Assembly: GCA_043815505.1 (NCBI GenBank)
Contig: JBDRIV010000003.1
Coordinates: 128,239-183,517 of the forward strand
DNA: 55,279 nucleotides
Direction: 5' to 3'
Source: a bacterium
GTDB lineage: Bacteria > Patescibacteriota > JABMPQ01 > JBDRIV01
The notes beneath the pieces were generated by a model. It was not told the DNA's origin, did not search any database, and worked only from the letters and a program-made list of their open reading frames with translations. Shown here piece by piece: positions 1 through 13,499 of the stretch (its first letter is position 1; every line of letters starts with the position of its first letter). The position numbers and the translations under genes were made by a program.

Positions 1-159
1 TTTTCATAATTATCTAATTGTGCCTTGAGCTCTTGTGTTGTGGTTATCATAATATTATTAATTATTCCTCTTAAAATTTGGAGGTTTTTCATAATTACAG
101 GCTTCCATTCAGCAATAGATATTGATGCCCCATCTCTTCAGTATGAAGTTACATACTAT

Positions 160-645
160 TTAGTATGCATTACATGCACATCCGGGAGGTTTGTGGCACG
201 TGTAAGATTTTGAAATGCATGAATCCCCACACGCCTTTCCTGTTGAACACATTTTACAACAACTGGTTGTTGGTTCAGGTTCAGGTTCAGGAACAGGTGT
301 TGGAGCTGATTCAAAAACTGGAGCAGGTTCGGGTTCTGGTTCCACGACTGGGATGGGAGCTGGTTCTGGTATTGATTCTACAATTGGCTCTGAATATGTT
401 TCGGTTTCTACAGACTCTTCTTCAATAGTATCCTCAACTACTTTTTCATCAATATCCTCAATAATCTCTTCTTCTACAACATCCGCTTCAGGTTCAATTT
501 TTGGAATTTCTGTTTTTATCTCCTTTACCTGATTTATAGCCGAACCATCAATGCTACTATCATTATTATCTATTGCAACTCCTACAATTCCGAAAAGTAT
601 CATTCCCCCAACAACTAGCAGTACGTTTATTGAACCTTTTTTCAT
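160..645 (-). CDS. Membrane-anchored protein with acidic/Pro-Glu stalk and C-terminal 8-Cys domain
   Basis: N-terminal hydrophobic helix; E/P-rich linker; CCKMCSTGKACGDSCISKSYTCHKPPGCAC tail. Confidence 0.8.
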   Translation of the reverse strand: MKKGSINVLLVVGGMILFGIVGVAIDNNDSSIDGSAINQVKEIKTEIPKIEPEADVVEEEIIEDIDEKVVEDTIEEESVETETYSEPIVESIPEPAPIPVVEPEPEPAPVFESAPTPVPEPEPEPTTSCCKMCSTGKACGDSCISKSYTCHKPPGCACNAY

Positions 646-794
646 GTATTTTTATTAAATATAAATTCCCCAGAGTTTTTATATTAAATAAAAACCCAGC
701 TCGAATTGTGGGTTTGTTTTTGTTTTCGAATTGTTTTTAAGTGATTACTTAAATTTTATCACTTAATACTTTGAAGTCAAATTATTTAGTGCTT

Positions 795-1496
795 TTATAT
801 AATTTTATCGGATTTTTTTAAGTTGTGCTTACTGCACAGTATTTGAATGTTTTTATCATCTGTACTTGAACCACCTTTGGAATATGGAATTATATGATCA
901 AAGTGTAAATCCTTATTTGATTCACAGTCTGGATGACTACATTTACCACCATCTCTTTCCCAAACTTTCCTTTTTATGCTAGTTGGTATTCTTCTTGAAA
1001 ATTCGAATTCTTCAATTTCTTCTTTGGTCATATCCTCCTTAGAACCATCTGGCAATAGTATAAATTTAAATACCTTTCTTTTCTCTAGTTTTGAATATTC
1101 AAATTTCACATCAACCAAATTAAACCATCCTTTGTCTGACCATACATTCGGATTTATTTTTTCATAAACCTTGATAGTCTCCGGTTTTTCTCGTCTTTTT
1201 GATTTATAATCTTCTGCCGCCTTGAAAAACAGATTGTTGTTTGTAGGCTTCCCATTTTTTGTAAATAGTGGCTGATCTATCTCTTTCGGATGATGACTTT
1301 CTCTTTTACTAATGTCTTCTCCTTCATAAATTAGCTTCTCTCCTTTTTTATCAAAACCATCATTATATGGTGAGTTCTCTCTAACGGACATGAGTAAGAT
1401 GGAATAGTTGTTGTTTTGTGGCCGAAAATTCATTCCTCTTTGAACGTTAAACCCTTCTCGCTCGACTATCTCATTGTATTTTAAAATATCTTTCAT
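795..1496 (-). CDS. HNH endonuclease with SRA/PUA-like N-terminal domain (putative modification-dependent restriction enzyme)
   Basis: C-terminal CxxxxC..HFDHIIPYSKGGS..NIQILCSKHN; N-terminal RGMNF..ILLMS..YND..LIYEGED resembles SRA-type domains. Confidence 0.8.
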   Translation of the reverse strand: MKDILKYNEIVEREGFNVQRGMNFRPQNNNYSILLMSVRENSPYNDGFDKKGEKLIYEGEDISKRESHHPKEIDQPLFTKNGKPTNNNLFFKAAEDYKSKRREKPETIKVYEKINPNVWSDKGWFNLVDVKFEYSKLEKRKVFKFILLPDGSKEDMTKEEIEEFEFSRRIPTSIKRKVWERDGGKCSHPDCESNKDLHFDHIIPYSKGGSSTDDKNIQILCSKHNLKKSDKII

Positions 1497-1498
1497 AA

Positions 1499-2617
1499 CT
1501 ATTTTTCTACCTTTTCCGCTTTATCTTTAAGCCAAGTTACATCAAAATCATAATTATCTTTATGTTTATCGTCCAATTCCCTAACACTATCATATGATAA
1601 ATAATGAACTACTTCATCTAATTTTAGGAAATTATTCGAAAATGTTGGTCTTCTTAATTCATTAAACACTTTGTTTTTCCTGTCTCTAGAAGCAACAATG
1701 AACAATGGGTAATTTGAATTTGGAGTTAAGGATCTTAGATCTGATAATCTTAAAATGCCTGAGTAAACAGAGGTTGAGTGCTCTATTTCAAAAGCCGATT
1801 TTACTGATTGGCCCAATTTCCAAACCGTATCAATGTTTTTTATGTACATAGGAACATCTAAAGATTCTTGATATTCATCTAAAACCATATTTTTGAAAAT
1901 CTCTCCATTATAACTTTTATTTTGATCATTACGCGGAACCCATACATCGAAATGTGATTTGTTGCCTAATCTAATAAGGCGCCATTGCATTTCATCATGC
2001 TCTGTTGGCGCTTTTTCTATTTTTTCTTCTAATATTTCTTTGAATTCTGTTTTATCTTCTATATCAATTTTTTCAGGCTCTTCACCAGATTCAATAACTT
2101 GTAAAAATGAAAGCAAGTCGCCATATATGGAAAGTAGTTGGTTTGTTTTCTTTTGATCAATAGACATAAACCCACGTGGAAAATAGAATTCACTATAACC
2201 AAGATACTGATTTAAATCCGACTGTTTAACATTGACTTTGACATCATTTATTAAAAAATAAATATATTCCCAAGTTTTACCCTCCGAATCTTCATTCCAA
2301 AAATATTGAGCCATTTTTGGGCTTCTAACTTTCATAGCTACTTCGGCGGCATAGATTATCTTCCCAGACTTATAGACCATTATATAATCACCCTTATCCA
2401 TCACTCCCCATGTTCTAATATTTCCTTCTCCCGGTACAGCGCCCCAAACAGCAAAGCCTCTTCCTTTGGTATAACTTTCTAATTCTTTGACTTCATTTTC
2501 CGTGATAAACTGTGACACTTCCTTAATAGTTCTTTTTGTTTCAATTGTATCGCGAAAATGGCGGTCGGTATCTTGACCACCGCTTGCTACTACAAAAAAT
2601 ATTTTTCTTTCTTTCAT
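1499..2617 (-). CDS. PUA/EVE-like domain fused to PD-(D/E)XK-type nuclease
   Basis: N-terminal WGAVPGEGN..W..MDKGD; C-terminal IDTVW..AFEIEHSTSVYSGILRLSDL restriction-endonuclease-like motif. Confidence 0.65.
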   Translation of the reverse strand: MKERKIFFVVASGGQDTDRHFRDTIETKRTIKEVSQFITENEVKELESYTKGRGFAVWGAVPGEGNIRTWGVMDKGDYIMVYKSGKIIYAAEVAMKVRSPKMAQYFWNEDSEGKTWEYIYFLINDVKVNVKQSDLNQYLGYSEFYFPRGFMSIDQKKTNQLLSIYGDLLSFLQVIESGEEPEKIDIEDKTEFKEILEEKIEKAPTEHDEMQWRLIRLGNKSHFDVWVPRNDQNKSYNGEIFKNMVLDEYQESLDVPMYIKNIDTVWKLGQSVKSAFEIEHSTSVYSGILRLSDLRSLTPNSNYPLFIVASRDRKNKVFNELRRPTFSNNFLKLDEVVHYLSYDSVRELDDKHKDNYDFDVTWLKDKAEKVEK

Positions 2618-2638
2618 AAAATCCCCAGAATTTATAAG

Positions 2639-2986
2639 TTATAATTCGTTATATTTATTATGTCTACCGAATGCTTTCTCAACCGGATATTTGTTTTCGT
2701 TTTTTACAATTTTGTTTTCCAGAGCTTCAACAATATTAATATCTAAATCTTTGCTCATTAATAAAACCCAATACAGAACGTCAGCTAGTTCCTCTCCAAT
2801 TTCTTTTTTGTGAGTTTCAATATATTCTTTCATTTCTTCCTCCGATTTCCATTGAAAATGTTCCATTACTTCCCCGGCTTCCAAAACTAAAGACAGGGCC
2901 ACGTCTTTTGGATTGTGAAATTGTTTCCAATCACGCGCGTCCCTAAAATCTACTATTTTTTGTGTTAATTCGTCTATTTTTTTCAT
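2639..2986 (-). CDS. MazG-like nucleotide pyrophosphohydrolase (DCTPP1/RS21-C6 type)
   Basis: RDWKQFHNPKD..EAGEVME..EELADV..KNENKYP signature. Confidence 0.9.
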   Translation of the reverse strand: MKKIDELTQKIVDFRDARDWKQFHNPKDVALSLVLEAGEVMEHFQWKSEEEMKEYIETHKKEIGEELADVLYWVLLMSKDLDINIVEALENKIVKNENKYPVEKAFGRHNKYNEL

Positions 2987-3099
2987 GTCCCCAGAATTAG
3001 TTTTATATGTTATTAAAATAACACCATTTTGTGCTTAAATCAAATGAAAAACGGATGAAGCTTTTTAGGCTTCACCCGTGTTGTTTGTTATAAGTATTC

Positions 3100-4698
3100 T
3101 TATTGCACGCCCATCACAACACAAACATCAGTGTCTGTTTGACCAGAGGGCGGATAAGGAGGTTGGTTGTAAGGAGGGGAGGTGATGTCTTCAGCGTAGA
3201 TCGTGAACACATTATTCCCGAACACACTGGCGGATCGAGGGAGCATCTGGCTGAAATGGTATGAAAAGTAATTGAAACTGCTCAATGTTTTCACACCTTG
3301 TTTCCAATTCTCAAAGACCACTCCATTTGCTAGATCCACCCGTATATTTGCGTAGATCGTACGAAGTGAATTGGGATAGTGTTTACTGAGGAGGATGTAG
3401 AAATCGACATCGAAGGGAAGAATACCAGCTGGCGGTAGACATTCCAGATCCGCGGAGATCACTTTGTAATCGGGATTGAATGTGCTGCAGATGTATGCGG
3501 CTCCAGAGTCTGTTCCGATTTCGTCATTCCCCCAAGCGCCAACTGCGACATTGTATCCTGACAACGAAACTGCGCTACCAAACCAATCATTTACAGCTCC
3601 ATCAGAAGCGAGTATTTTATCTTCTTCTATCCATCCAGTTCCGTTCCAGCCATAAACATACACTGATCCAGCATGAGCATCAGTATCATTGTCATGTCTG
3701 GCACCAAGTATGGCGAAATGTGGACTGACTGCAACTGAATATCCCAATTCATCGTTGGGCTCGCCGTCAGATGCTACAAACTTATTTTCCTGAATCCATG
3801 TGGTACCATTTCTTCTGAAGGCATAAGCGGATCCAGAACTCGTTCCCATGTCATCGTCTACATAAGCGCCGATTACAACCAGATTTCCACTTATTGAAAC
3901 GGCTGAACCGAAATGGTCTTCTGCGCTTGCATCATTAGCAGTCAGTTTCTGTTCTTCAATCCAACTTTCTCCATCAAAATGGAAGATGTAAGCTGAACCA
4001 GAATAAGGTCCACTTTCGTCAGTGGCCCAAGCTCCGACAACTGCCAGGTCACCATCAATAGCGACAGCTTGACCGAAGTAATCCTGTGTTTGCCCGTCGC
4101 TGGCAGTTAGTTTCTGTTCTTCTGTCCAGCTCATTCCGTCATAGCGGAATACATAAGCCGAACCTGAATCGGGACCATTGTCATCATCGCCGTGGGCTCC
4201 TGCTATAACACAATCTCCGTCAAAGGATACAGAATAGCCTAGATAATCACTGGGCTGAGCATCTGATGCTCGAAGTTCAGTGTCCTCAACCCATTCCGAT
4301 TCATCTTTCTTGAAGACGAATACTGCGCCAGAAGCATTTGTGCCATGAATAATACCATGACCATGTGCTCCAACAATGCAAACATCCCCTTTAATTGATA
4401 CGGAACTTCCAAAGGCATCATTTTGACCACCATCACTTGCGAACAGTTTTTGTTCTTGCGTCCATGCTCCATTTGCGTAATGAAACAAGTACGCTGAGCC
4501 TCCGTCATGGCCAATATCATCGTCATAATTAGCCCCGATTACCACATATTCACCACTGATTGCGACAGACCAACCAAACCAATCGGCAATTTCTCCATCG
4601 CCAGTGGTAAGTTTGACGATTTCGGTGTGTGCGCCGAAAGCTGTGTTACAGACCAAAAAGGATAAAATCACCAACATAAAACTCATTTTCTTGAACAT
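3100..4698 (-). CDS. Secreted FG-GAP repeat (beta-propeller) protein with C-terminal beta domain
   Basis: Signal peptide; about 7 repeats of KL.ASD....D.FG.SV.I.G...VVGA..DD....SGSAY; AGGAG RBS. Confidence 0.9.
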   Translation of the reverse strand: MFKKMSFMLVILSFLVCNTAFGAHTEIVKLTTGDGEIADWFGWSVAISGEYVVIGANYDDDIGHDGGSAYLFHYANGAWTQEQKLFASDGGQNDAFGSSVSIKGDVCIVGAHGHGIIHGTNASGAVFVFKKDESEWVEDTELRASDAQPSDYLGYSVSFDGDCVIAGAHGDDDNGPDSGSAYVFRYDGMSWTEEQKLTASDGQTQDYFGQAVAIDGDLAVVGAWATDESGPYSGSAYIFHFDGESWIEEQKLTANDASAEDHFGSAVSISGNLVVIGAYVDDDMGTSSGSAYAFRRNGTTWIQENKFVASDGEPNDELGYSVAVSPHFAILGARHDNDTDAHAGSVYVYGWNGTGWIEEDKILASDGAVNDWFGSAVSLSGYNVAVGAWGNDEIGTDSGAAYICSTFNPDYKVISADLECLPPAGILPFDVDFYILLSKHYPNSLRTIYANIRVDLANGVVFENWKQGVKTLSSFNYFSYHFSQMLPRSASVFGNNVFTIYAEDITSPPYNQPPYPPSGQTDTDVCVVMGVQ

Positions 4699-4971
4699 TT
4701 CTCAGTCTCCTTTTCTTGCTTCTTTGAGCTAGAGTTTAGTCACAAATAAGGCCTTTTCTCCTTCCTTTTCTGAAGTTATTGATTAACCAACCAGTTGTAA
4801 AAGAGCGATATTACTTCAGATTAAGATACCACCATTCAGTTCCAGAGTCAACAAAAACCGCCTTTTTGGCAGTTTTTGTTTACTCTTAAGATGTAAATCA
4901 TAAAATCCTTACTTTATGGCTTATTATAAAGCAAACTTTGTTATTAACTCAAAAAATACCTCGGCATAAAA

Positions 4972-5057
4972 TCCCCGAGCATGTGGGGTAATTAGCATAT
5001 AGCTAATGGCTAATGGCTAATAGCTAATAGCCCGTATTTCCCGAGCCTATGGTGAGC
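4972..5057 (+). repeat. Dispersed repeat copy 1 (head module with heptamer array)
   Basis: CCCGAGCATGTGGGGTAATTAGC + 5 x (T/A)(A/T)AT(A/G)GC + CCGAGCCTATGGTGAG, shared with 5811 and 7608. Confidence 0.95.
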
Positions 5058-5115
5058 ATAATTGGCATATTGCTTATGGCAATTAGCGAATAGCAACGAT
5101 CCAACCTGGGGTGAG

Positions 5116-5190
5116 CCCTCCTGCACTAAAGCTCCGGGCGGGCAGGGTTTGTAAACTTGACTTGATGAGCCTGCCTGCCGGCAGGCAGGG
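5116..5190. repeat. Two GC-rich REP-like palindromes
   Basis: CCCTCCTGCACTAAAGCTCCGGGCGGGCAGGG and perfect CCTGCCTGCCGGCAGGCAGG. Confidence 0.75.
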
Positions 5191-5298
5191 AAGAGCGATG
5201 CTGTTAGTCATTTTTGCATCGGTTGACTTTTTTGAGAAATCAACATATCATAATAAGCTCACTAAATACGATGATCTTTTAACATAGGGAGGTGCACT

Positions 5299-5736
5299 AT
5301 GGATAAGAAGACGTTTTTTGTTAAGTCACTCATTGGTCTAGTTGTAACAATTTGGCTTATTGGTATCTTTATGTTCATATTTAGATACAAAATGCCAGTA
5401 GTTCAAGCTAGCGATGGATTAACGGATCTGGTAAAAATGTTTTGTGTTTTATATTTCTTTGGGCTCTTATTCATTATTTGCATTCTTCTTAATGAATTAA
5501 CTCCGGCATCACGAAGAAAAGCTAAAGAAAGAAAGCTACATGAGGAAGAGCTAGAAAGGGAAAGACAAGAGAGTTTAAGAAAAACGAAATGCCCAATTTG
5601 TGGAAGTGGCTACTCGTCTATTATATCCATCTCCGTTCCAACCAAAAATCCATATGAAGAGGAAACGCTGGGATACACAAAAACGGTATGGAAATGCACA
5701 GCATGCAATAACGTTTTAAACAATTTCTACATGTAG
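5299..5736 (+). CDS. Two-TM membrane protein with C-terminal zinc ribbon
   Basis: Two hydrophobic helices; CPIC...CTAC; GGGAGG RBS and TTGACT-N17-TATCAT promoter. Confidence 0.8.
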   Translation: MDKKTFFVKSLIGLVVTIWLIGIFMFIFRYKMPVVQASDGLTDLVKMFCVLYFFGLLFIICILLNELTPASRRKAKERKLHEEELERERQESLRKTKCPICGSGYSSIISISVPTKNPYEEETLGYTKTVWKCTACNNVLNNFYM

Positions 5737-5810
5737 ATATTCAATAACTGACCTCGAGCATGTCATAAAAAGGCTCTTTTTGTTTGCTCGAAAGTAAATC
5801 GTCGTAATGC

Positions 5811-6122
5811 TCCCCGAGCATGTGGGGTAATTAGCTTATAGCTTATAGCTTATTGCTTATTGCTAATAGCTTGTAGCCGTAAATATTCCGAGCCTATGGT
5901 GAGCTTGGATAGCCACCGCCGCAAGCAGCGGCGGGGCGAAGCAGTTCGAGATAAGCTTGAATGTTCACGAAGTGAAAAATGCCACTGTTTGACACAAGCC
6001 CCAGTTTTCGAAAAACTGGAGCTGGGGAGTTTGGTATTTTAATGAAAGCGAATCCGAACTGGCTCCGACCGAATCCATGTGCTCGCAGTTTTGGCCCCAC
6101 CTTTTGCTGCCAAAAGGTGGGA
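5811..6122 (+). repeat. Dispersed repeat copy 2 (head module + about 180 bp structured module)
   Basis: Head as at 4972; 5941-6122 closely matches 7688-7866. Confidence 0.95.
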
Positions 6123-6350
6123 GATAATAATTAAAAAAGTGAAAAATAATAAAATTTTGTTTCTTTTCAAAAAAGAAAAAACCCTGCACAATGCAGGGCC
6201 TAAACTAGTCCTAGATGCTCATCCACCGGCGGATGAGAAATAAATTCTGTATCATTACTACGGATTTTTGAGATGCCACATATTTTGTATCTCATCCATG
6301 ATACTCAAAAATGCTAGTGTCTCATATTATTAATTATATGATACACTAAA

Positions 6351-7442
6351 TTACATTACTATACTCAGTAATTTAGTAAAGATGTATGTTGTGGGTCGAC
6401 TCCCAATACCCTTTTGAATAATTCTGATAACTCCACCTTTAGTTAATGCTTTTAAAATTCTAGCGGCACTCGCTTTGGGTATATTGGAATCCTTTACAAA
6501 CTGAGGACTGTTAAATATTGGGTTGCAAAAAAGAAAATCCAAGGCTTTAATTGAGAATTGCGACCGCGTAAGCTCGGCTATTATTAATTTTTTTGTATCA
6601 TACAATTGATGTATAGCTTTGGCCTTGTTGATATTTTCTTTTGCTTGAATTGTAACAGCATTTAGAAAATATTCTATCCATCCTTCCCAGTTATTTTTTT
6701 GTGAGACTCTAAGTAATTGTCCATAATACTCCTCACGATGAGACTCAAAATATGCACTTAGATAAAACATTGGACTCGATAACACCTTTTTGAAATACAA
6801 AAATATTGGCATTAATATTCTTCCCACCCTACCATTACCATCAAAAAATGGGTGAATTATTTCAAATTGAGCATGAACAATTGCCAATTGAACAAGTATG
6901 TCTTTTTCATCACTATGAATATATTTTTCTAAATTAGTCATTAAAGCATTAATTTTATCAGCTGAGGGAGGAACATAACTCGCTTGTTGAATTGTGGTGC
7001 CTAGTTTACCAATAAAAACTTGTTGTTTTCTAAAATTACCTCGGTCTTTATTTTCCCCCCTGACACCATGCAATAGAATTTTATGAGCATTTTTAATTAC
7101 TCTATTGGAAAGTGAAAATTTTTCAATTTCTTTTACTGCTGATTGTAGAGCTTTTCTATAGTTTATTATTTCTTTTATATCTTCATATTTTTTATTCTCC
7201 TTCTGTGGATCAGCTTCATATTCTAAAACCTCTTGCAGAGAAGCTCTAGTTCCTTCAATTTTAGATGACAAAACAGCTTCTTGAGTTGTTAATGGTGATA
7301 GAAGCACTGCTGGATTAGGCATACTTTGTAAAAGTCCATCAAATCGAGCAATTTCTGCATTTGCTTTTCCAATAAGATGAACAAAAGATTCCCACTTTAA
7401 ATTTTCAATTGGTAATAATTTTGGTGTGTAATTATCTGTCAT
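6351..7442 (-). CDS. Fic family protein (class II, with C-terminal HTH)
   Basis: HPFFDGNGRVGR Fic motif; SSKIEG autoinhibitory motif; C-terminal wHTH-like segment. Confidence 0.93.
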   Translation of the reverse strand: MTDNYTPKLLPIENLKWESFVHLIGKANAEIARFDGLLQSMPNPAVLLSPLTTQEAVLSSKIEGTRASLQEVLEYEADPQKENKKYEDIKEIINYRKALQSAVKEIEKFSLSNRVIKNAHKILLHGVRGENKDRGNFRKQQVFIGKLGTTIQQASYVPPSADKINALMTNLEKYIHSDEKDILVQLAIVHAQFEIIHPFFDGNGRVGRILMPIFLYFKKVLSSPMFYLSAYFESHREEYYGQLLRVSQKNNWEGWIEYFLNAVTIQAKENINKAKAIHQLYDTKKLIIAELTRSQFSIKALDFLFCNPIFNSPQFVKDSNIPKASAARILKALTKGGVIRIIQKGIGSRPTTYIFTKLLSIVM

Positions 7443-7607
7443 TATTTTCCATTTCTCCCAGTTCTTTAGTAATTAGTATGCTAAATATAGCACCAATTTA
7501 AGCCAAAATCAAGCGGTAGAACCATGGGTTTTAGCGTATGGCCAAGAGCAAATGGCGAATAGCTATAAAAGAGCAAAAAGAAAATAGTAAAAAGTAAATA
7601 ACTAATT

Positions 7608-7866
7608 TCCCGAGCATGTGGGGTAATTAGCTTATAGCTTATTGCTAATAGCCTGTCGTACCTCCGAGCCTATGGTGAGGTTGGCTAGCAGTTCGAGATA
7701 AGCTTGAATGTTCACGAAGTGAAAAATGCCACTGTTTGACCCAGCCCCAGTTTGAAAAACTGGAGCTGGCGAGTTTGGCATTTTAATGAGAGCGAATCCG
7801 AACTGGCTCCAAGCGAATCCATGAGCGAGGCAGTTTTTCCTCCAGTTTTTGCTGCCAAAAAGTGGA
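7608..7866 (+). repeat. Dispersed repeat copy 3 (head module + structured module)
   Basis: Near-identical to 5811-6122, with fewer heptamers and lacking the GC hairpin at about 5915-5940. Confidence 0.95.
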
Positions 7867-8083
7867 ATAAAAAAAATAATCATAATAAAATTTGTTACTT
7901 TATAAAAGTAAAATATCCCTGATTTGACTTACCTCACATACCTGCTATACTGTACTCAGTAATAAAAAGAAAAGGTCTCTGGCAAGGCACGTCCAAGTTT
8001 AAGAGGCTTTTTCTTTTTGTTTAATTACATTAGTTTGAACTGTTGCAGAAATTGCAACAATTGTCTTTTAAACTAAATTAAGT

Positions 8084-8506
8084 TTAAATATCTATTAAAT
8101 AAGTCTTTAGGAATTTATTAATCGCAGCTACGGTTTCTTCTTTCAGCTTCGGATTGCTCTCAGCCACCCAAACAGCAAAATTATATAACTCTTGATTATC
8201 AACTCTAATCCATTTTTTGTTTTTATACAAAAATATAAAAAGTGTAGTTATGGCAATTCTTTTATTGCCATTTTCAAAAGGATGGTTTTTGACCATTAAA
8301 TAAAACAGGATCGCTGCTTTATCAACTAATCCTTTATAAAGATTCTTTTTAGCAAAAGTTTGAAACGGAACTGCTAAACAACTTTCCAAGGAATTTGGGA
8401 ATCTCGTATCAAAATCTGGAATTGGTTCATTCCATTGCATATGTTCTTTAGCAAGTTTGTGCGCACCATGTTCAACTTCTGTAAATGTTATATTCTTGAT
8501 GGCCAT
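8084..8506 (-). CDS. Doc-type (death-on-curing) toxin
   Basis: HPFENGNKR motif; KAA.L..L.KNH; small single domain. Confidence 0.9.
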   Translation of the reverse strand: MAIKNITFTEVEHGAHKLAKEHMQWNEPIPDFDTRFPNSLESCLAVPFQTFAKKNLYKGLVDKAAILFYLMVKNHPFENGNKRIAITTLFIFLYKNKKWIRVDNQELYNFAVWVAESNPKLKEETVAAINKFLKTYLIDI

Positions 8507-8508
8507 AA

Positions 8509-8763
8509 TTATTCTTTACCTAACAAGCGCAAAGTTTCTCCGTATTCATCTACAGTTTTTTTAACTGCTCTATCAACCAAATCATTTTTAAAACTTTCTT
8601 CTTTTACTGCGGGAAGGTCTTTAATGTCATTTCTATCAATAACATAATTTCTACCAATTTTTATGGCTTTAATATCACCCTTTTTAATACGATTAAAAAT
8701 AGTGATACGGCTAACACCAAGTAGTTTAGCTAATTCGTTTGTAGATATAAATTGATTCTTCAT
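8509..8763 (-). CDS. Excisionase-like HTH protein, probable antitoxin
   Basis: STNELAKLLGVSRITIFNRIKKG HTH; C-terminal EYGETLRLLGKE helix; 2 nt upstream of Doc. Confidence 0.8.
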   Translation of the reverse strand: MKNQFISTNELAKLLGVSRITIFNRIKKGDIKAIKIGRNYVIDRNDIKDLPAVKEESFKNDLVDRAVKKTVDEYGETLRLLGKE

Positions 8764-8769
8764 ACTTTC

Positions 8770-8815
8770 ATGTTAACATATGTTAATCTTGTTGTCAATA
8801 GTTAACATAGGTTAA
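8770..8815 (-). promoter_or_regulatory. TA promoter with two palindromic operators
   Basis: TTGACA (8798-8793), N17, TAACAT (8775-8770); TTAACATATGTTAA 8773-8786 and TTAACATAGGTTAA 8802-8815. Confidence 0.75.
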
Positions 8816-9139
8816 TGTTATCCCCTAATAAAATGGGTGTTTCCTAATTAAATTCACGGTATATGGTCAATAGAGCGTGAATATTGTTGATTTATCCCCT
8901 ATATTCACGGTGTTCTAGTTGGCATATTGCTTATAGCTAATTGTAAATGGCCAGAATTTTATTCTTGACACAAAATAAAATTTTGCTATAATTAAGGCAG
9001 AATACATATGAAACACACCTCTTTGGGTTTTGTCCCCTAGCGGTGTTTTTCTTTATACATTTGACAACTAAGCTTATTTAAAGTAATAATATAAGGCTGT
9101 ATAGCAATAAATGTTCTTTACAACAAGGGAGGATTAGTT

Positions 9140-10633
9140 ATGAGAAGAATCTGTTGTGCGATGTTTGCCGTTCTGTTCCTGTCACTCGTGCTTCACTCTT
9201 GCGGCGGTAACGAATCCGCCATTCTAGAAAAGGCCGAGGTGAAAAAACCGGTTAAGACAGATGAACAAATCAAGGCAGAAACACTAAGCCTCAATGACGC
9301 ATTTGAATCTGCAACAACTGATGAGCAAAAAGTGACTGCTCTAGATAATCTTCTTAGATTGGATCATCGTCTGGGAAGTGTTGCTTTCTATTATTTGTTC
9401 GACCATAGTGATTTAAATTCTCCTAGAGAATTGGGCTGGTTCAAAAACGCTTTGAACAGCTCGGGAAACTGCGAATCAATTATTGGCGCCGGTTATTACA
9501 TCTTCTTTAAGATTAGTCCGATCATTAAAGAAGCTGCAAATCTAGGTGAGGAAAATGGCGACACAGACGATTTGACCGATGAAGAAAAGGTCAAATTTGT
9601 TCTTCTCTCTCGGCAAGCCGAAGTTGTCTGCAATGAATATAACGAAAAGCTCGGTTTGATTCAGGAAGAGTTCAAAATTATCACTCGCCGGAATTCGGCT
9701 TCTCTGTTTGATGTTCTTAGAAAAGAATGGTCAACGGATGAAGGTACAGCGATCGAACTCGACATTCCTCTGTTGGGCTTCCTTTCTCTCAAAGAAGAAG
9801 GATTTGAAAAACTGTTGATGTTGGTCCGAGAAGATCTGGATAAAACGATAGTTTTTGCCGCCACAGAATCTTTCGGTCCGCACGCTGTTTTTCCCATCCT
9901 GAAAACCATTGAGTATGAGGGAGCCACTCCTATACAAAAAAATACGGCGGCAATTTGTCTAGTCAAATTACCTGAAACGATTGAAGTCTACGATAAGGTT
10001 GTTGAAGCTTGTAGGCGCGGTCATTTCTATGAATCCAAAAAAAAGATAACCGACATCAAAGGAATGATGGCTGCAGTCACTTCAAACTGGATGAACAATC
10101 TAAAACAGAGGTATCACGGCAACACAGATTTCGTTAATCATTTGGGCCAAAACCACCTATCGAACTCGCATGGTCTGGACAAAGTGGTTGAAATGATGTC
10201 CGAATGCTGCCTCCAAACAGCCTATCCGTATCTGGAAAAGCTTCTCAATTCAACCAAACCTTCTTTCAACTCAGAAGATGACAAACTCTTCATTTCTCTT
10301 AAAATGGCCTGCAATGGTTCTCTTCTTCATAAGGAAGATGACAGAAAAACACTGGAAGAAAGGTTCAAGCTTTTCTATTTGTTGTTTCAATATACTCAAC
10401 CTAAGATGAGAGAAAGCGATCTTTTGATTTTCTCCTGTAAGAAATTTCCTCCTGAGTATCAGGAGGCACTAATTACCTCCTTGTTCAGTTTGATGACACC
10501 CGAAGAAAGAAGGAGGGCTATCGGTATCGCTGAGGATCTTCCACAATCACAACGCAATGCGGTTTTTGATAAAATTCGACCGCTATGCAATTCGGAGGAA
10601 AGAGTGCTGGTAAAGATTAATTATTCCAACTAA
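9140..10633 (+). CDS. Hypothetical alpha-helical protein, possible lipoprotein
   Basis: 497 aa ORF; GGGAGG RBS; signal peptide ending LHSC-GG; terminator hairpin at about 10643-10690. Confidence 0.75.
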   Translation: MRRICCAMFAVLFLSLVLHSCGGNESAILEKAEVKKPVKTDEQIKAETLSLNDAFESATTDEQKVTALDNLLRLDHRLGSVAFYYLFDHSDLNSPRELGWFKNALNSSGNCESIIGAGYYIFFKISPIIKEAANLGEENGDTDDLTDEEKVKFVLLSRQAEVVCNEYNEKLGLIQEEFKIITRRNSASLFDVLRKEWSTDEGTAIELDIPLLGFLSLKEEGFEKLLMLVREDLDKTIVFAATESFGPHAVFPILKTIEYEGATPIQKNTAAICLVKLPETIEVYDKVVEACRRGHFYESKKKITDIKGMMAAVTSNWMNNLKQRYHGNTDFVNHLGQNHLSNSHGLDKVVEMMSECCLQTAYPYLEKLLNSTKPSFNSEDDKLFISLKMACNGSLLHKEDDRKTLEERFKLFYLLFQYTQPKMRESDLLIFSCKKFPPEYQEALITSLFSLMTPEERRRAIGIAEDLPQSQRNAVFDKIRPLCNSEERVLVKINYSN

Positions 10634-10730
10634 TTCTCACAAGAGTACACGCTGAAGTTTAACTTCAGGTCAGTGGCTCTTTTTTTATTTGACATTAACT
10701 GATATTTTAAGTAATTCCTTCTTTTGGCAA

Positions 10731-10754
10731 TAAAAAGGAGCGGGCGCCCGCTCC
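10731..10754 (-). terminator. Intrinsic terminator of the DUF4430 gene
   Basis: GGAGCGGGCGCCCGCTCC palindrome followed by a T-run on the minus strand. Confidence 0.7.
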
Positions 10755-10780
10755 AATTTCAAAATCAAAATAAAATTTAT

Positions 10781-11245
10781 TTACTGCAATTCCGTATAAA
10801 CCCAAGCAACCTCATCTCCATCTTTCACAGTTTGAGCATCGGCTCCCATTTCTGCCATCTCGCCATTAACTTCCAGTGACCAGAAATGAGCATCATCCGC
10901 TTTCATACCATTAATAGAATTTACCATGGTACCGAAATCATAATCTTCAGCTTCATAGAAAAATCCTTCGCCTTCATCAACTGCTTTCATAACATCCATA
11001 ACGGTAGCGCCTTCGTTCACTTTGGCTTCGTAATCTAAAACGGCTCCTTTTACCTCAACTGACATAGTAACGTCAATTTGAGCTACTTTTTTATCAACCA
11101 CCGAACTTACCACCGCACCTTCAGTTGAAGTGTCAGGTGAAATGAGGAAATAACCGCCGGCAAATCCGGCTGCGGCTAAAATTAGAATGAGGACTGGCAT
11201 TAATAATCCTCGTTTTTTATTATTTGGCGTTTGTTCTTCTTCCAT
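10781..11245 (-). CDS. Membrane-anchored DUF4430 (transcobalamin-like C-terminal domain) protein
   Basis: One TM; GATVMDVM..FGTMVNSING..FWSLEVNGEMAEMGA...V..GD.V.W; riboswitch upstream. Confidence 0.88.
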   Translation of the reverse strand: MEEEQTPNNKKRGLLMPVLILILAAAGFAGGYFLISPDTSTEGAVVSSVVDKKVAQIDVTMSVEVKGAVLDYEAKVNEGATVMDVMKAVDEGEGFFYEAEDYDFGTMVNSINGMKADDAHFWSLEVNGEMAEMGADAQTVKDGDEVAWVYTELQ

Positions 11246-11329
11246 GCTTGTTTGTTAAATGTAAAATAAAACTGCTTTTACAAGCAGGGATAATAAAGAT
11301 AAATCTTTGTTATCCTGCTCGGGATCCAT

Positions 11330-11465
11330 TACTTACTTCGAAGGTAGGTTCTCTGGCTTCCCCGCTCCAATTTTTAAAACTGGAGCTTGGTTACAGTTGC
11401 GGCACAGCACCGGATTTTCACCGGATTTCCCCCACAGGCTTCGAATCGCCATTGGTAAGTGTGGT
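11330..11465 (-). ncRNA. Cobalamin riboswitch
   Basis: Minus strand GGGAAATCCGGTGAAAATCCGGTGCTGTGCCGCAACTGTAA ... GAAGCCAGAGAACCTACC; TTGACA-N17-TAATAT promoter at 11500-11472; downstream hairpin 11283-11319. Confidence 0.92.
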
Positions 11466-11500
11466 AGATAGATATTAATTCAAATATTTGGTTTTGTCAA

Positions 11501-11599
11501 CCCAGCTCCAGTTTTTTTCAACTCAAAATCTATTAATCAATCGATGCAAAAATGATTTTATATTTCAAATTGTTTAAACTAAAAAAAACTGGGGCTAGG
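11501..11599. repeat. MITE-like element with terminal inverted repeats
   Basis: CCCAGCTCCAGTTTTTTT ... AAAAAAAACTGGGGCTAGG. Confidence 0.7.
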
Positions 11600-11604
11600 T
11601 CAAT

Positions 11605-12540
11605 TTATTTAGCTCGTTTTAAAAGCTCGGTTTTGGTGATTAAACCTTTCTGCGCTCCCACTTTTTGAACAACGGCCGCAGACAACTGTGCTCCCCATTT
11701 CATAGCAGCTTCCAAATCCTTACCATCAATTTGAGCAGCGATAACGGCGGCGGCATAAGAATCACCCGCACCAGCTTTTTCACGCGTTTTAACTTTTAGA
11801 GATCTGACAAAATAGAATTTTGTGCCATCGAATCCATGCGAACCTTTAGTACCATTGGTGATAATTATATTTTTTGCACCTACTTTAGAATAAAATTTTA
11901 AATATTCTTTAGCAGTCATTTTCTTAACAGCAATCCGATTAGCTTCTTCTAAATTTAAAATGAAAAGTTCTGCCGCTTTGATGGTTGGTTGTAAATTTTT
12001 CAAATTAGTTCTAACTTGGCGTGATCCCGGGGCAAAAATTATTTTAGCACCTGTCTTTTTAGCATACTCTCTCGCCTCTTTGTAAAGAGAGGCGAAATTG
12101 TTGCCACAAGATGTAAGATATAAAAATTTGCTTGGGGGAAGTTTAGGCAATTTGTAATCCCATTTTTCGTGGTAAGAAAAAATAGTTCTTTCTTTCTCAA
12201 AAGTAATTACTGCTGAAGTGCTGGTAATTTTTTTATCGTTTTTTACAACGTAAGAAGTAGCAACTTTGCGGTCGCGCAAATTTTTTATTGTTTGCTCACC
12301 TTCGGCATCACCACCGACGTGAGTATAAATAGCAGTTTTGTAACCAAGGTGAGCGGCGGCTACAGCCACATTAGCAGAATTACCACCGGCCGTTTTAACA
12401 ATGGACTGCACCGGAATTTTTTCACCGTAATCAACACACAATTTACAATTCTTGCGATCAATATCGCAAGATACTTCGGCTTCATTAATTACATAGAAGA
12501 TGTCGAATACGGAATCGCCGATGGTTATAATGTCAAACAT
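11605..12540 (-). CDS. PfkB family carbohydrate kinase
   Basis: GGNSANVA and KAGAGDSY motifs; start moved to MFDIITIG just after the upstream stop. Confidence 0.92.
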   Translation of the reverse strand: MFDIITIGDSVFDIFYVINEAEVSCDIDRKNCKLCVDYGEKIPVQSIVKTAGGNSANVAVAAAHLGYKTAIYTHVGGDAEGEQTIKNLRDRKVATSYVVKNDKKITSTSAVITFEKERTIFSYHEKWDYKLPKLPPSKFLYLTSCGNNFASLYKEAREYAKKTGAKIIFAPGSRQVRTNLKNLQPTIKAAELFILNLEEANRIAVKKMTAKEYLKFYSKVGAKNIIITNGTKGSHGFDGTKFYFVRSLKVKTREKAGAGDSYAAAVIAAQIDGKDLEAAMKWGAQLSAAVVQKVGAQKGLITKTELLKRAK

Positions 12541-12542
12541 AG

Positions 12543-13499
12543 TTATGAAAATAATTTTGAAATGTCTTCGCCAAAATTTTCTTGGTATCTTTGGCAAAAT
12601 TCCTCTGATGAAAACTTATGAGTTTGCGTGCCATACATTTCTACGGTGTAAACGCTGGTTACAGCACCCAGCTGACCGCAAATATAAAGTGGTTGTTTGT
12701 GAAGTAAACCTTTGATGAATCCTGCTCGGAAAGCGTCGCCGGCGCCCGTCGGATCAGAAGTGTTTTTAGGTTTGGCGGCGCCGACATCAATAACTTCTCC
12801 TTTATTATAAATCCTAGAACCTTCTTCACCAAGAGTGGTGACCAAAATTTCTGTCAGGTCGGCCAGTTCTTTCACGGTTTTTTCGGTAGCTCTCATAATA
12901 AGTTCTATTTCATAATCGTTACCAATGGTAACATGGCTACCAGCAATAATTTCTTCAAATTCTTCTCCTGAAAATTGTGGTGTCATTTGGCCAGGATCGA
13001 AAATGTACGGAATGCCCGCTTCCTTTAATTCTTGAGCACGAATTAGCATACCTTCTTTATTGGTGGGAGCCAAAATTGCCAGTTCCGGTTTTTCTGTCTC
13101 CAAAATTTCTTTAACAGGAAAATTGTCGTCTTTGATGGCACCGACATAAAAAGCTGTAATTTGATTGTCCTTTTGGTCGGTAATAATTTTAGCCGTGGCG
13201 GTGTCATCGCTGGAAATTTCTTTGATGTATTTTAAATTGGCGCCGTTTTTTTCTAAATGCTTTTTGTACTCGGCAAAATCCTTACCCACAGCGGTAGCAA
13301 TTAAGGGATCTTCTTTGAGCAAACTTAAGTTGTAAGCAATGTTGCCGGCTGTGCCGCCAAATTCTTTTTTATGAGTTTCTACAACAAAACTCACATTTAA
13401 AATGTGAAGTTTGTCGGGCAAAATATGATCTTGAAAGCCGCCCGGGAAATTCATAATGTAGTCATAAGCCACAGAACCTGTGACTAAAACTTTTTGCAT
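12543..13499 (-). CDS. PfkB family nucleoside/adenosine kinase-like protein
   Basis: VTGSVAYDYIM, FGGTAGNIAY, FDPGQ, DPTGAGDAFRAG. Confidence 0.9.
   Translation of the reverse strand: MQKVLVTGSVAYDYIMNFPGGFQDHILPDKLHILNVSFVVETHKKEFGGTAGNIAYNLSLLKEDPLIATAVGKDFAEYKKHLEKNGANLKYIKEISSDDTATAKIITDQKDNQITAFYVGAIKDDNFPVKEILETEKPELAILAPTNKEGMLIRAQELKEAGIPYIFDPGQMTPQFSGEEFEEIIAGSHVTIGNDYEIELIMRATEKTVKELADLTEILVTTLGEEGSRIYNKGEVIDVGAAKPKNTSDPTGAGDAFRAGFIKGLLHKQPLYICGQLGAVTSVYTVEMYGTQTHKFSSEEFCQRYQENFGEDISKLFS

Follow-up and report, generated by a model that had tools for sequence, protein, structure and literature searches.

Mosaic, strongly folding intergenic repeats crowd a defence island in a Patescibacteria genome

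The window analysed here, a 55,279-nucleotide (nt) stretch of a Patescibacteria genome (assembly GCA_043815505.1, contig JBDRIV010000003.1, positions 128,239 to 183,517), carries three related intergenic repeats, W1 to W3, all on the plus strand. The genome, designated G000, comprises 1,008,203 bp in 4 contigs, is 99% complete, has ~35% G+C and is ~88% coding. A sequence-only reading of the window had described each repeat as a head, a variable array of TWATWGC-like heptamers and a tail, the three co-oriented copies being set around a zinc-ribbon membrane gene and a Fic gene, and this layout was borne out. The 22-nt head CCGAGCATGTGGGGTAATTAGC occurs exactly at 4975, 5814 and 7610, each time on the plus strand (three matches; 0 expected from 100 shuffles), and the 16-nt tail CCGAGCCTATGGTGAG exactly at 5041, 5888 and 7664 (three matches versus 0.08 expected), with 5, 6 and 3 heptamers between head and tail as first counted. 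Translated open reading frames (ORFs) and a Pfam scan bore out the gene content between and after the copies, namely the zinc-ribbon membrane protein (Pfam matches below threshold), the Fic protein and a Doc/helix-turn-helix (HTH) pair. The features are as follows, with matches to the core model R1 described below.

4972–5215 (+): copy 1 (W1), a fragmentary mosaic, with its head hairpin at 4972–4996, 5 heptamers to 5031, the tail at 5040–5057, a second heptamer array at 5059–5094, a CCAACCTGGGGTGAG module from ~5101 and a GC palindrome at 5170–5189.
5299–5736 (+): orphan 145-amino-acid (aa) membrane protein with two CxxC pairs and a C-terminal zinc-ribbon-like end.
5811–6134 (+): copy 2 (W2), a full unit (R1 E = 9.7e-16), with its head at 5811–5835, 6 heptamers to 5877, the tail at 5887–5904 forming the 5' base of the folded module, an extra GC hairpin at 5911–5939, the core P2-UGUUUGA-hairpin-GAGUU-P2' at 5979–6037 and a terminal hairpin at ~6096–6122.
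6179–6201 (−): terminator-like hairpin at the Fic gene.
6351–7442 (−): Fic_N and Fic domain protein of 363 aa (Pfam; PADLOC SoFic).
7607–7879 (+): copy 3 (W3), a full unit (R1 E = 7.3e-18), with its head at 7607–7631, 3 heptamers to 7652, the tail at 7663–7680, the core at 7726–7781 and a terminal hairpin at ~7841–7866.
8084–8506 (−): Doc/Fic-domain toxin-like gene (Pfam; PADLOC PDC-S23-like).
8509–8763 (−): HTH_17 antitoxin-like gene (Pfam); the Doc/HTH_17 pair also gives a mad1-like PADLOC match.
8916–8951 (+): solo heptamer array, the 'remnant' of the sequence-only reading.

Head, array and tail stand as first delimited, and the restriction of the unit to these parts does not, since copies 2 and 3 are larger. 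W2 and W3 also resemble each other for ~190 nt past the tail (5940–6134 versus 7687–7879, 78–95% identical in blocks), with 93.6% identity over 140 nt of this downstream part by BLAST, so the true units span ~5811–6134 and ~7607–7879. Both are imperfect hairpins of ~270–325 nt. W1 (4972–~5215) runs from head, heptamers and tail into other modules, lacks the UGUUUGA/GAGUU core described below, gives no R1 match and folds no better than chance (z −1.49); its modules recur on other contigs of the genome at C2:219040–219087, C2:21463–21486 and C4:162179–162204. The solo array is 78% identical to 5059–5094 over 36 nt (repeat family D1), confirming the remnant. No other site in the genome has the exact head plus TAATTAGC form; the head hairpin, tail, heptamers and downstream modules each recur elsewhere by BLAST. 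Scanning metagenomes for the tail together with the bases after it returned 0 matches. Because the three copies are each other's closest relatives and the head plus TAATTAGC form is found only there, local duplication or recombination probably gave rise to them, judging from sequence comparison, rather than three independent insertions. The last 43–60 nt of W3 are 98–100% identical to C2:51307–51349 and C2:346334–346393 and only 78% identical to W2, which shows that modules have been exchanged, and recombination between the copies probably took place.

RNA folding of W2 (5811–6136) gave −124.8 kcal/mol, with a z of −7.04 against shuffles, and W3 (7607–7880) gave z values of −4.50 on the plus and −4.97 on the minus strand. 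In the W2 fold the head pairs with a 3' CCATGTGCTCG, closing the whole unit, and the tail is the start of a folded module with an invariant internal loop, UGUUUGA/GAGUU. Six copies in the genome share the core layout hairpin, AAAAT, helix, (N)UGUUUGA, variable hairpin, GAGUU, helix; the core helix varies between copies and stays complementary (ATGCCA/TGGCAT, TTTGTG/CACAAA and TTTCCTG/CAGGAAA). A pattern scan of species-representative genomes returned 4 loci versus ~0.4 expected by our own estimate, each holding the motif between new complementary flanks, and the named relatives among the genomes found are metagenome-assembled genomes of Saccharimonadales/Saccharibacteria. The core model R1, built from 8 sequences, has 92.1% of its cells paired versus 72.0% for shuffles and 26–61% with slid partners. 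Both sides have changed at 6/6 pairs of its outer helix. The score of the model was reached by 0/500 shuffles. Within its own genome R1 recovers 4 strong copies, W2 and W3 included.

Known RNA families do not account for this fold. Rfam 15 gave no match over the repeats at gathering score and no plausible family at E ≤ 1, and none at the 4 related loci; hammerhead-like and cobalamin-box-like strings picked out by eye gained no support from Rfam. RNase P RNA sits elsewhere in all 5 genomes tested, as do weak 6S RNA matches in 2 genomes. Signal recognition particle (SRP) RNA carries GNRA/AGCA features; the motif has none, and on this ground the identity was rejected by eye, with the multi-copy, patchy spread also against it. 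As a separate observation, the SRP RNA models RF00169 and RF01854 matched in 0/5 Patescibacteria genomes (G000, G131, G037, G087 and G110), all five of which gave RNase P RNA matches; these lineages may have an SRP RNA that has diverged too far for either model to detect.

BLAST iterated from 8 seeds closed on 15 loci covering 2,954 nt, among them five further large mosaics at C2:51230–51574 (−), C2:346312–346680 (−), C2:348600–348954 (+), C4:161840–162220 (−) and C2:219030–219170 (+). Alignment of the mosaics revealed modules that are shuffled, inserted and duplicated. The adjoining genes encode riboflavin kinase, a class II aminoacyl-tRNA synthetase, CDP-alcohol phosphatidyltransferase, a CCA-enzyme-like protein, an NYN protein and orphans of 142, 152, 215 and 363 aa (no family in Pfam, NCBIfam, PADLOC or PHROGs). 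The same modules thus lie partly beside housekeeping genes, and a scatter of copies regardless of accessory genes was an outcome that the sequence-only reading had named as refuting it; recombination sites for cassette shuffling are not supported. Segmental duplication of gene-plus-repeat blocks was rejected as well, the C2 orphans of 363 and 152 aa being unrelated to the Fic and zinc-ribbon proteins of the window. At C2:346312–348954, two large inverted copies bracket two orphan genes (152 and 363 aa) and may form a composite unit.

Heptamer arrays of at least 3 units occupy 29 loci genome-wide, 25 intergenic, 1 genic and 3 overlapping heuristic ORFs, versus 0 in shuffles; the largest, at C3:39008–39093, has 12 units. 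Being tandem, 7 nt in period, variable in number and intergenic across the genome, they are heptanucleotide simple-sequence arrays. A small hairpin, CCAGC-Y-CCAGTTT..AAACTGG-R-GCTGG, forms the tip of both W2 and W3 and is dispersed in the genome; roughly 20–30 of the loose-pattern matches, counted by eye, show its outer stem, and several look like terminator stems. The head hairpin is found elsewhere as ATCCCC-GAGCATGT-GGGGAT. A small GIY-YIG ORF, a 90-aa frame at C2:16706–16921 (−), lies inside the 23S rRNA gene and is closed by a CCCAGCCCCACTTTTAG...CTAAAAGTGGAGCTGGG stem of the tip-hairpin family, followed by a heptamer array. The ORFs that overlap the repeats themselves (5894–6100, 5965–6189 and 7632–7883, all minus strand) have no Pfam family, and insertions and deletions between W2 and W3 break any common frame, so small repeat-encoded proteins were rejected. 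With gene-less, multi-copy, modular, intergenic and strongly folding units (15 loci; z −4.5 to −7.0), the repeats are a new family of the BOX/BIME/REPIN-like kind combined with a heptamer microsatellite. Narrow word searches of open-access literature turned up no account of repeats like these in Patescibacteria or Saccharibacteria.

Relatives extend across the phylum. R1 matched 10/150 other Patescibacteria genomes at E ≤ 0.01, and inspection found the full motif with different helices in 7 of those (G043, G083 with 3 copies, G087, G131, G037, G110 and G101); in G150 and G063 the small hairpin matched alone, and the G132 match is doubtful. An nhmmer profile of 6 own copies recovered all 3 G083 copies over 150–175 positions (E 6e-14 to 2.5e-10), three other loci (L040, L038 and L041) in part and one marginal G037 copy (E 0.0067). 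BLAST of one G131 copy within the Saccharimonadales-like order matched 13/26 genomes, with 7 matches in G131, 14 in G037 and 8 in G150, and the repeat is patchy even within genera (2/5 genomes of genus g57). Thirteen Saccharimonadales-like copies align over ~215 nt and carry the loop in 13/13 cases (two as UGUUUAA, one as UGUCUGA). Their hand-drawn structure of 52 pairs includes an H-type pseudoknot and is 87.6% paired versus 72.0% for shuffles; at 30/52 pairs both partners differ between copies, and pairing reaches 96.4% in the pseudoknot helix. A second model, R2, built from Saccharimonadales-like copies only (143 positions), finds the G087 copy at E 3.6e-20.

One copy in G131, between the leucyl-tRNA synthetase (LeuRS) gene and a 243-aa gene, is missing in the congener G168 (genus g34), where 11 nt separate the flank matches; the LeuRS spacer is also short in G150. 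Presence and absence between related genomes is thereby seen for a related family in g34, with G131 filled and G168 empty. In G037 the LeuRS spacer (L101, G037:C1:415900–416470) holds, instead of the repeat, a 97-aa GIY-YIG gene, a mini-cassette set between GTCATCCCGAGC...GCTCGGGATGAC inverted ends whose hairpin resembles the head hairpin of the window. The orthologous spacers of a second site, L083, are occupied by different sequence in G168 and G037 (363 nt; rearranged). A second, unrelated repeat of ~100 nt lies in the same G131 locus (L083:2535–2640) and recurs at several loci of G131, G037 and G168. The neighbours in other genomes include LeuRS, PGI, MgsA, GatB, cyclophilin and glycosyltransferase genes, with no constant gene among them. 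In 21/25 copies, scored on heuristic ORFs, the 3' end of the element faces the 3' end of an opposite-strand gene, often 2–16 nt from its stop codon. The copies also favour one strand (12/12 in G131 and 8/8 in G150, both complete chromosomes, and 9/11 in G037), and in G131 and G150 a single strand is used across the whole chromosome, not as a replichore-linked bias would give. On the UGUUUGA strand, G-U pairs outnumber A-C mismatches 26 to 13, and in the core alignment the two are equal, 4 versus 4.

The search for mobilising machinery agreed with the sequence-only reading that no integrase is visible, as none was found on the contig and the larger ORFs scanned in positions 1–13000 of the window include no recombinase. 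Y1_Tnp (PF01797) has 0 matches in this 99%-complete genome, a search whose controls scored in 6/14 cases, and the repeats do not qualify as a REPIN-RAYT system; RVT_1 has 0 matches in the genome. Phage_integrase (PF00589) has only 2, both on contig C2 in Xer-sized frames of 273 and 315 aa. The genome has four GIY-YIG proteins, three small and one UvrC-sized. In the Saccharimonadales-like order, TnpB (PF07282) occurs in 0/26 genomes, 13 of which carry the repeat; with the 0 matches of PF01797 in the window genome, this gives no support to end-derived RNAs of TnpB/IS200-IS605 elements or to PATEs. Mini GIY-YIG proteins were considered as mobilisers on co-occurrence and rejected, being present in all 26 of these genomes in counts that do not track those of the element. 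A MITE, as a non-autonomous DNA transposon, has terminal inverted repeats, a target-site duplication and a related autonomous element; the present units are long imperfect inverted repeats, and no ORF-bearing relative of the element was found. Only two sequencing runs contained small shares of the sequence words (0.08 and 0.07), and they yielded short contigs only; none bridged a repeat, no joint skipped a gene between repeats, and the repeats received no organism-specific cover. Contigs from an RNA library match 5296–5621 (zinc-ribbon gene) and 6807–6962 (part of the Fic gene) with 0–1 differences, for which DNA carry-over is possible, so these matches are no proof of expression.

The repeats sit in a defence island of SoFic, Doc/HTH and nuclease-like genes. 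The Fic protein matches the PADLOC SoFic model PDLC03963 end to end (residues 4–362, E 8.5e-117), and its distribution is patchy, with homologues in 8/16 genomes of the order and a best identity of 65%; this comparison set contains none from the family of the window genome and no close relative. Seven Fic-homologue loci from 6 further genomes of this order had neither the element nor the heptamers (0/7). The Doc gene matches PDC-S23 models of PADLOC, the genes at 1499–2617 and 795–1496 match REase_II models, the latter with an HNH domain, and a MazG-like gene lies at 2639–2986. A 497-aa gene at 9140–10633 is found in this genome only (1/16 of the order). For the 145-aa membrane protein, Pfam matches all fall below the curated cut-offs and no NCBIfam, PADLOC or PHROGs family was found.

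Several smaller features accompany these genes. Directly 3' of the solo array lies a promoter-like site at 8965–8992 (TTGACA-16-TATAAT, TG-extended, 12/12 promoter positions). Within the next ~60 nt come a short hairpin that contains GGGTTTTRTCCC and a T-run (8965–9056, +), and the whole may make a tiny RNA or an attenuator. A second promoter-like site lies beyond this hairpin at 9061–9090. On C2, a promoter and hairpin of the same sort, at 346200–346260 (−), come after the repeat copy there. Immediately beyond the Fic gene's 3' end (6275–6350), a repeated, partly palindromic TAGTGTCTCAT-type motif recurs beside the 65%-identical Fic gene of G005 (L031:2604–2675) and may be an operator or a small RNA of the SoFic unit. 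A cobalamin riboswitch match at 11326–11468 (−) barely exceeds the gathering score (33.1 versus 31.5 bits).

In our view W1 to W3 are probably interspersed repeats of a selfish or weakly domesticated nature that accumulated in a variable defence island, and not cassette sites of a dedicated recombinase. Units that are gene-less and multi-copy, relatives elsewhere in the Patescibacteria, a single clean empty site and the defence-like neighbourhood support in outline the second option of the sequence-only reading, in which a non-autonomous mobile element builds up in a hotspot of defence genes. Its first option, cassette-shuffling sites, is not supported, given modules beside housekeeping genes, no recombinase among the scanned ORFs of positions 1–13000, 0/7 Fic loci and an element that varies alone. 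The three repeats are mosaics drawn from a number of small repeat families spread through the genome's intergenic DNA, beginning with the head hairpin and continuing into a slippage-prone TWATWGC heptamer microsatellite, whose slippage would explain the 5, 6 and 3 units. In copies 2 and 3 a full, gene-less element of ~220–250 nt follows as a long imperfect hairpin with the tail as its 5' base, an invariant asymmetric internal loop at its centre (5' strand UGUUUGA, 3' strand GAGUU) flanked by two co-varying helices, and at its tip the small GC hairpin, which also occurs dispersed through the genome. Copy 1 is a 5' fragment joined to other modules. The family would spread or be lost as a unit at gene ends through some trans-acting activity or recombination, and we infer that the genome's own copies are mobile. 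As direct repeats of 250 nt, the copies could also delete or duplicate an intervening gene by ordinary homologous recombination.

Several observations weigh against interspersed selfish repeats as the full account. Each large copy in the genome has one orphan gene or more as a neighbour, and may thus have some link with variable genes. The one empty site shows no target-site duplication, and no mobilising enzyme turned up in the searches described (0 Y1_Tnp, 0 RVT_1, only Xer-like integrases elsewhere, no TnpB in the Saccharimonadales-like order). R2 misses W2 and W3, with a best score of 6.9 bits (E 0.27, filters off); full-length homology to the Saccharimonadales-like group thus rests on the loop motif, the architecture and intermediates, and by sequence comparison the copies of the window would share motif and architecture with that group and extended homology only with the G083-like group, another Patescibacteria family. 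The conserved pseudoknot and the invariant loop exceed the needs of a repeat that is purely selfish DNA, and suggest that the folded strand has a function. A far-reaching account, which we hold decidedly unlikely, would make the element a new class of structured mobile nucleic acid: a conserved protein would recognise the UGUUUGA/GAGUU loop together with the pseudoknot in single-stranded form, as RNA or single-stranded DNA, and copy the element into DNA immediately after stop codons, and gene-plus-element units (SoFic with W2, HTH/Doc with W3) could be swapped between genomes through recombination at the element, as a recombinase-independent, attC-like vehicle for defence genes.

The folded module might instead be a functional RNA, whether as the product of a small RNA gene present in multiple copies or as a terminator, stabiliser or processing site acting in cis at the 3' end of the gene whose stop codon it faces, with mobility secondary. 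We consider this unlikely, yet it draws on real features: the co-varying helices, the invariant internal loop, the co-varying H-type pseudoknot, the excess of G-U over A-C (26 to 13) on the UGUUUGA strand and the fixed orientation to the neighbour's 3' end (21/25 copies, often 2–16 nt from the stop). The closest analogues, BOX elements, are described in the available text of PMC3049150 as transcribed and thought to affect co-transcribed genes. However, the orientation rule places the reverse complement of the better-pairing strand in the neighbour's mRNA, so the G-U and orientation signals disagree, and the G-U excess is itself weak (4 versus 4 in the core alignment). Patchy presence even within genera (2/5 in g57) and a clean empty site argue against an indispensable RNA. 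There is no constant neighbouring gene, no Rfam family, and no promoter-like site or T-run at the ends of the few copies read, although no formal scan was run. A role for the heptamer arrays alone, as binding sites of a transcription or translation regulator that co-regulates the defence genes with unit number tuning expression, appears improbable. The solo array at 8916–8951 does end 13 nt upstream of a perfect −35/−10 pair, 10/29 arrays end at most 31 nt upstream of a predicted start codon (heuristic starts), and TAACTGA heptamers of Beggiatoaceae just upstream of start codons are proposed regulator sites in the available text of PMC4679880. Yet the arrays of W1 to W3 lie 200–480 nt from the nearest gene boundary, inside a larger hairpin, their unit sequences are degenerate, and no candidate binding protein turned up, no search aimed at one having been run.

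Least credible, indeed very improbable, is that the repeats are attC-like structure-specific sites at which SoFic with W2 and HTH/Doc with W3 are exchanged as cassettes by a recombinase encoded elsewhere. The co-oriented imperfect hairpins do lie 3' of minus-strand gene units with single accessory or defence genes between them, and the genome has two tyrosine recombinases, but both are on C2 and Xer-sized, with none among the scanned ORFs of positions 1–13000. In attC sites the recombination (R/L) boxes and extrahelical bases lie at the hairpin base, whereas here conservation across genomes appears to sit towards the hairpin tip, in the internal loop, and the base helices vary. In other genomes the elements adjoin genes for LeuRS, PGI, GatB, MgsA and glycosyltransferases, and in the window genome they adjoin housekeeping genes; gain or loss affects the element by itself, and Fic homologues elsewhere occur without it (0/7 loci).

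Patescibacteria genomes are tiny and streamlined, and this one still keeps several nested families of non-coding repeats. Such mosaics explain many 'empty' spacers and spurious small ORFs in annotation, and as direct repeats they could delete or duplicate defence genes such as SoFic. The invariant loop and the co-varying pseudoknot of the relatives mark a specific single-strand recognition event, and the loop motif is a concrete handle for finding the enzyme that recognises it.

Among known systems, BOX elements have a boxA-boxB(n)-boxC layout. Like BOX of Streptococcus pneumoniae, and with it RUP and SPRITE, the present repeats are small, gene-less, modular and interspersed with an internal part of variable copy number; extensive secondary structure, intergenic position, a lineage-restricted, parasitic-looking distribution and rare new insertions are further likenesses, as far as the available text of PMC3049150 describes BOX. 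They differ in having no sequence relation to BOX, a 7-nt microsatellite in place of the 45-nt boxB, an invariant internal loop with a pseudoknot in relatives, and a range of several families of the phylum and not one species group. BIMEs are mosaic combinations of short palindromic units. REP, BIME and REPIN sequences share with our element an intergenic position, often at gene 3' ends, a non-autonomous, hairpin-forming nature and long persistence in lineages, on the available text of PMC3116915 and PMC3337134. Unlike REP/REPIN, the genome has no Y1/RAYT transposase, the units measure 220–250 nt versus ~20–40 nt for REP, no GTAG-type 5' tetranucleotide was noticed on reading the copies (no dedicated search was made), and the conserved part is an internal loop.

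Cyanobacterial STRR sequences are heptanucleotide repeat arrays. The TAACTGA arrays of Beggiatoaceae, Cyanobacteria and Bacteroidetes likewise resemble the heptamers found here in being tandem, 7 nt in period, a few to tens of units long and mostly intergenic; they are often close to start codons, and the available text of PMC4679880 gives their function as not established. In contrast to TAACTGA and STRR arrays, the TWATWGC unit is degenerate and its arrays sit within a larger repeat, flanked by hairpin modules. Insertions in the rRNA genes of the candidate phyla radiation (CPR) offer another likeness, the 23S rRNA gene of this genome holding a GIY-YIG ORF with a stem of the W2/W3 tip-hairpin family. 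Non-intron insertions in CPR rRNA genes are reported to encode GIY-YIG proteins, and numerous short insertions of uncharacterised nature sit at the tips or bases of stem-loops (PMC11270868). The available text of that source deals with rRNA genes only and uses the word 'intergenic' 0 times, whereas the element described here is intergenic and gene-less. The likeness to integron attC sites lies in imperfect palindromes 3' of single co-oriented accessory genes; unlike an integron, the system has no integron integrase or attI, has housekeeping neighbours, appears to conserve the tip and not the base, and varies without its gene. A cassette-like picture can thus arise from ordinary interspersed repeats crowding a variable island.

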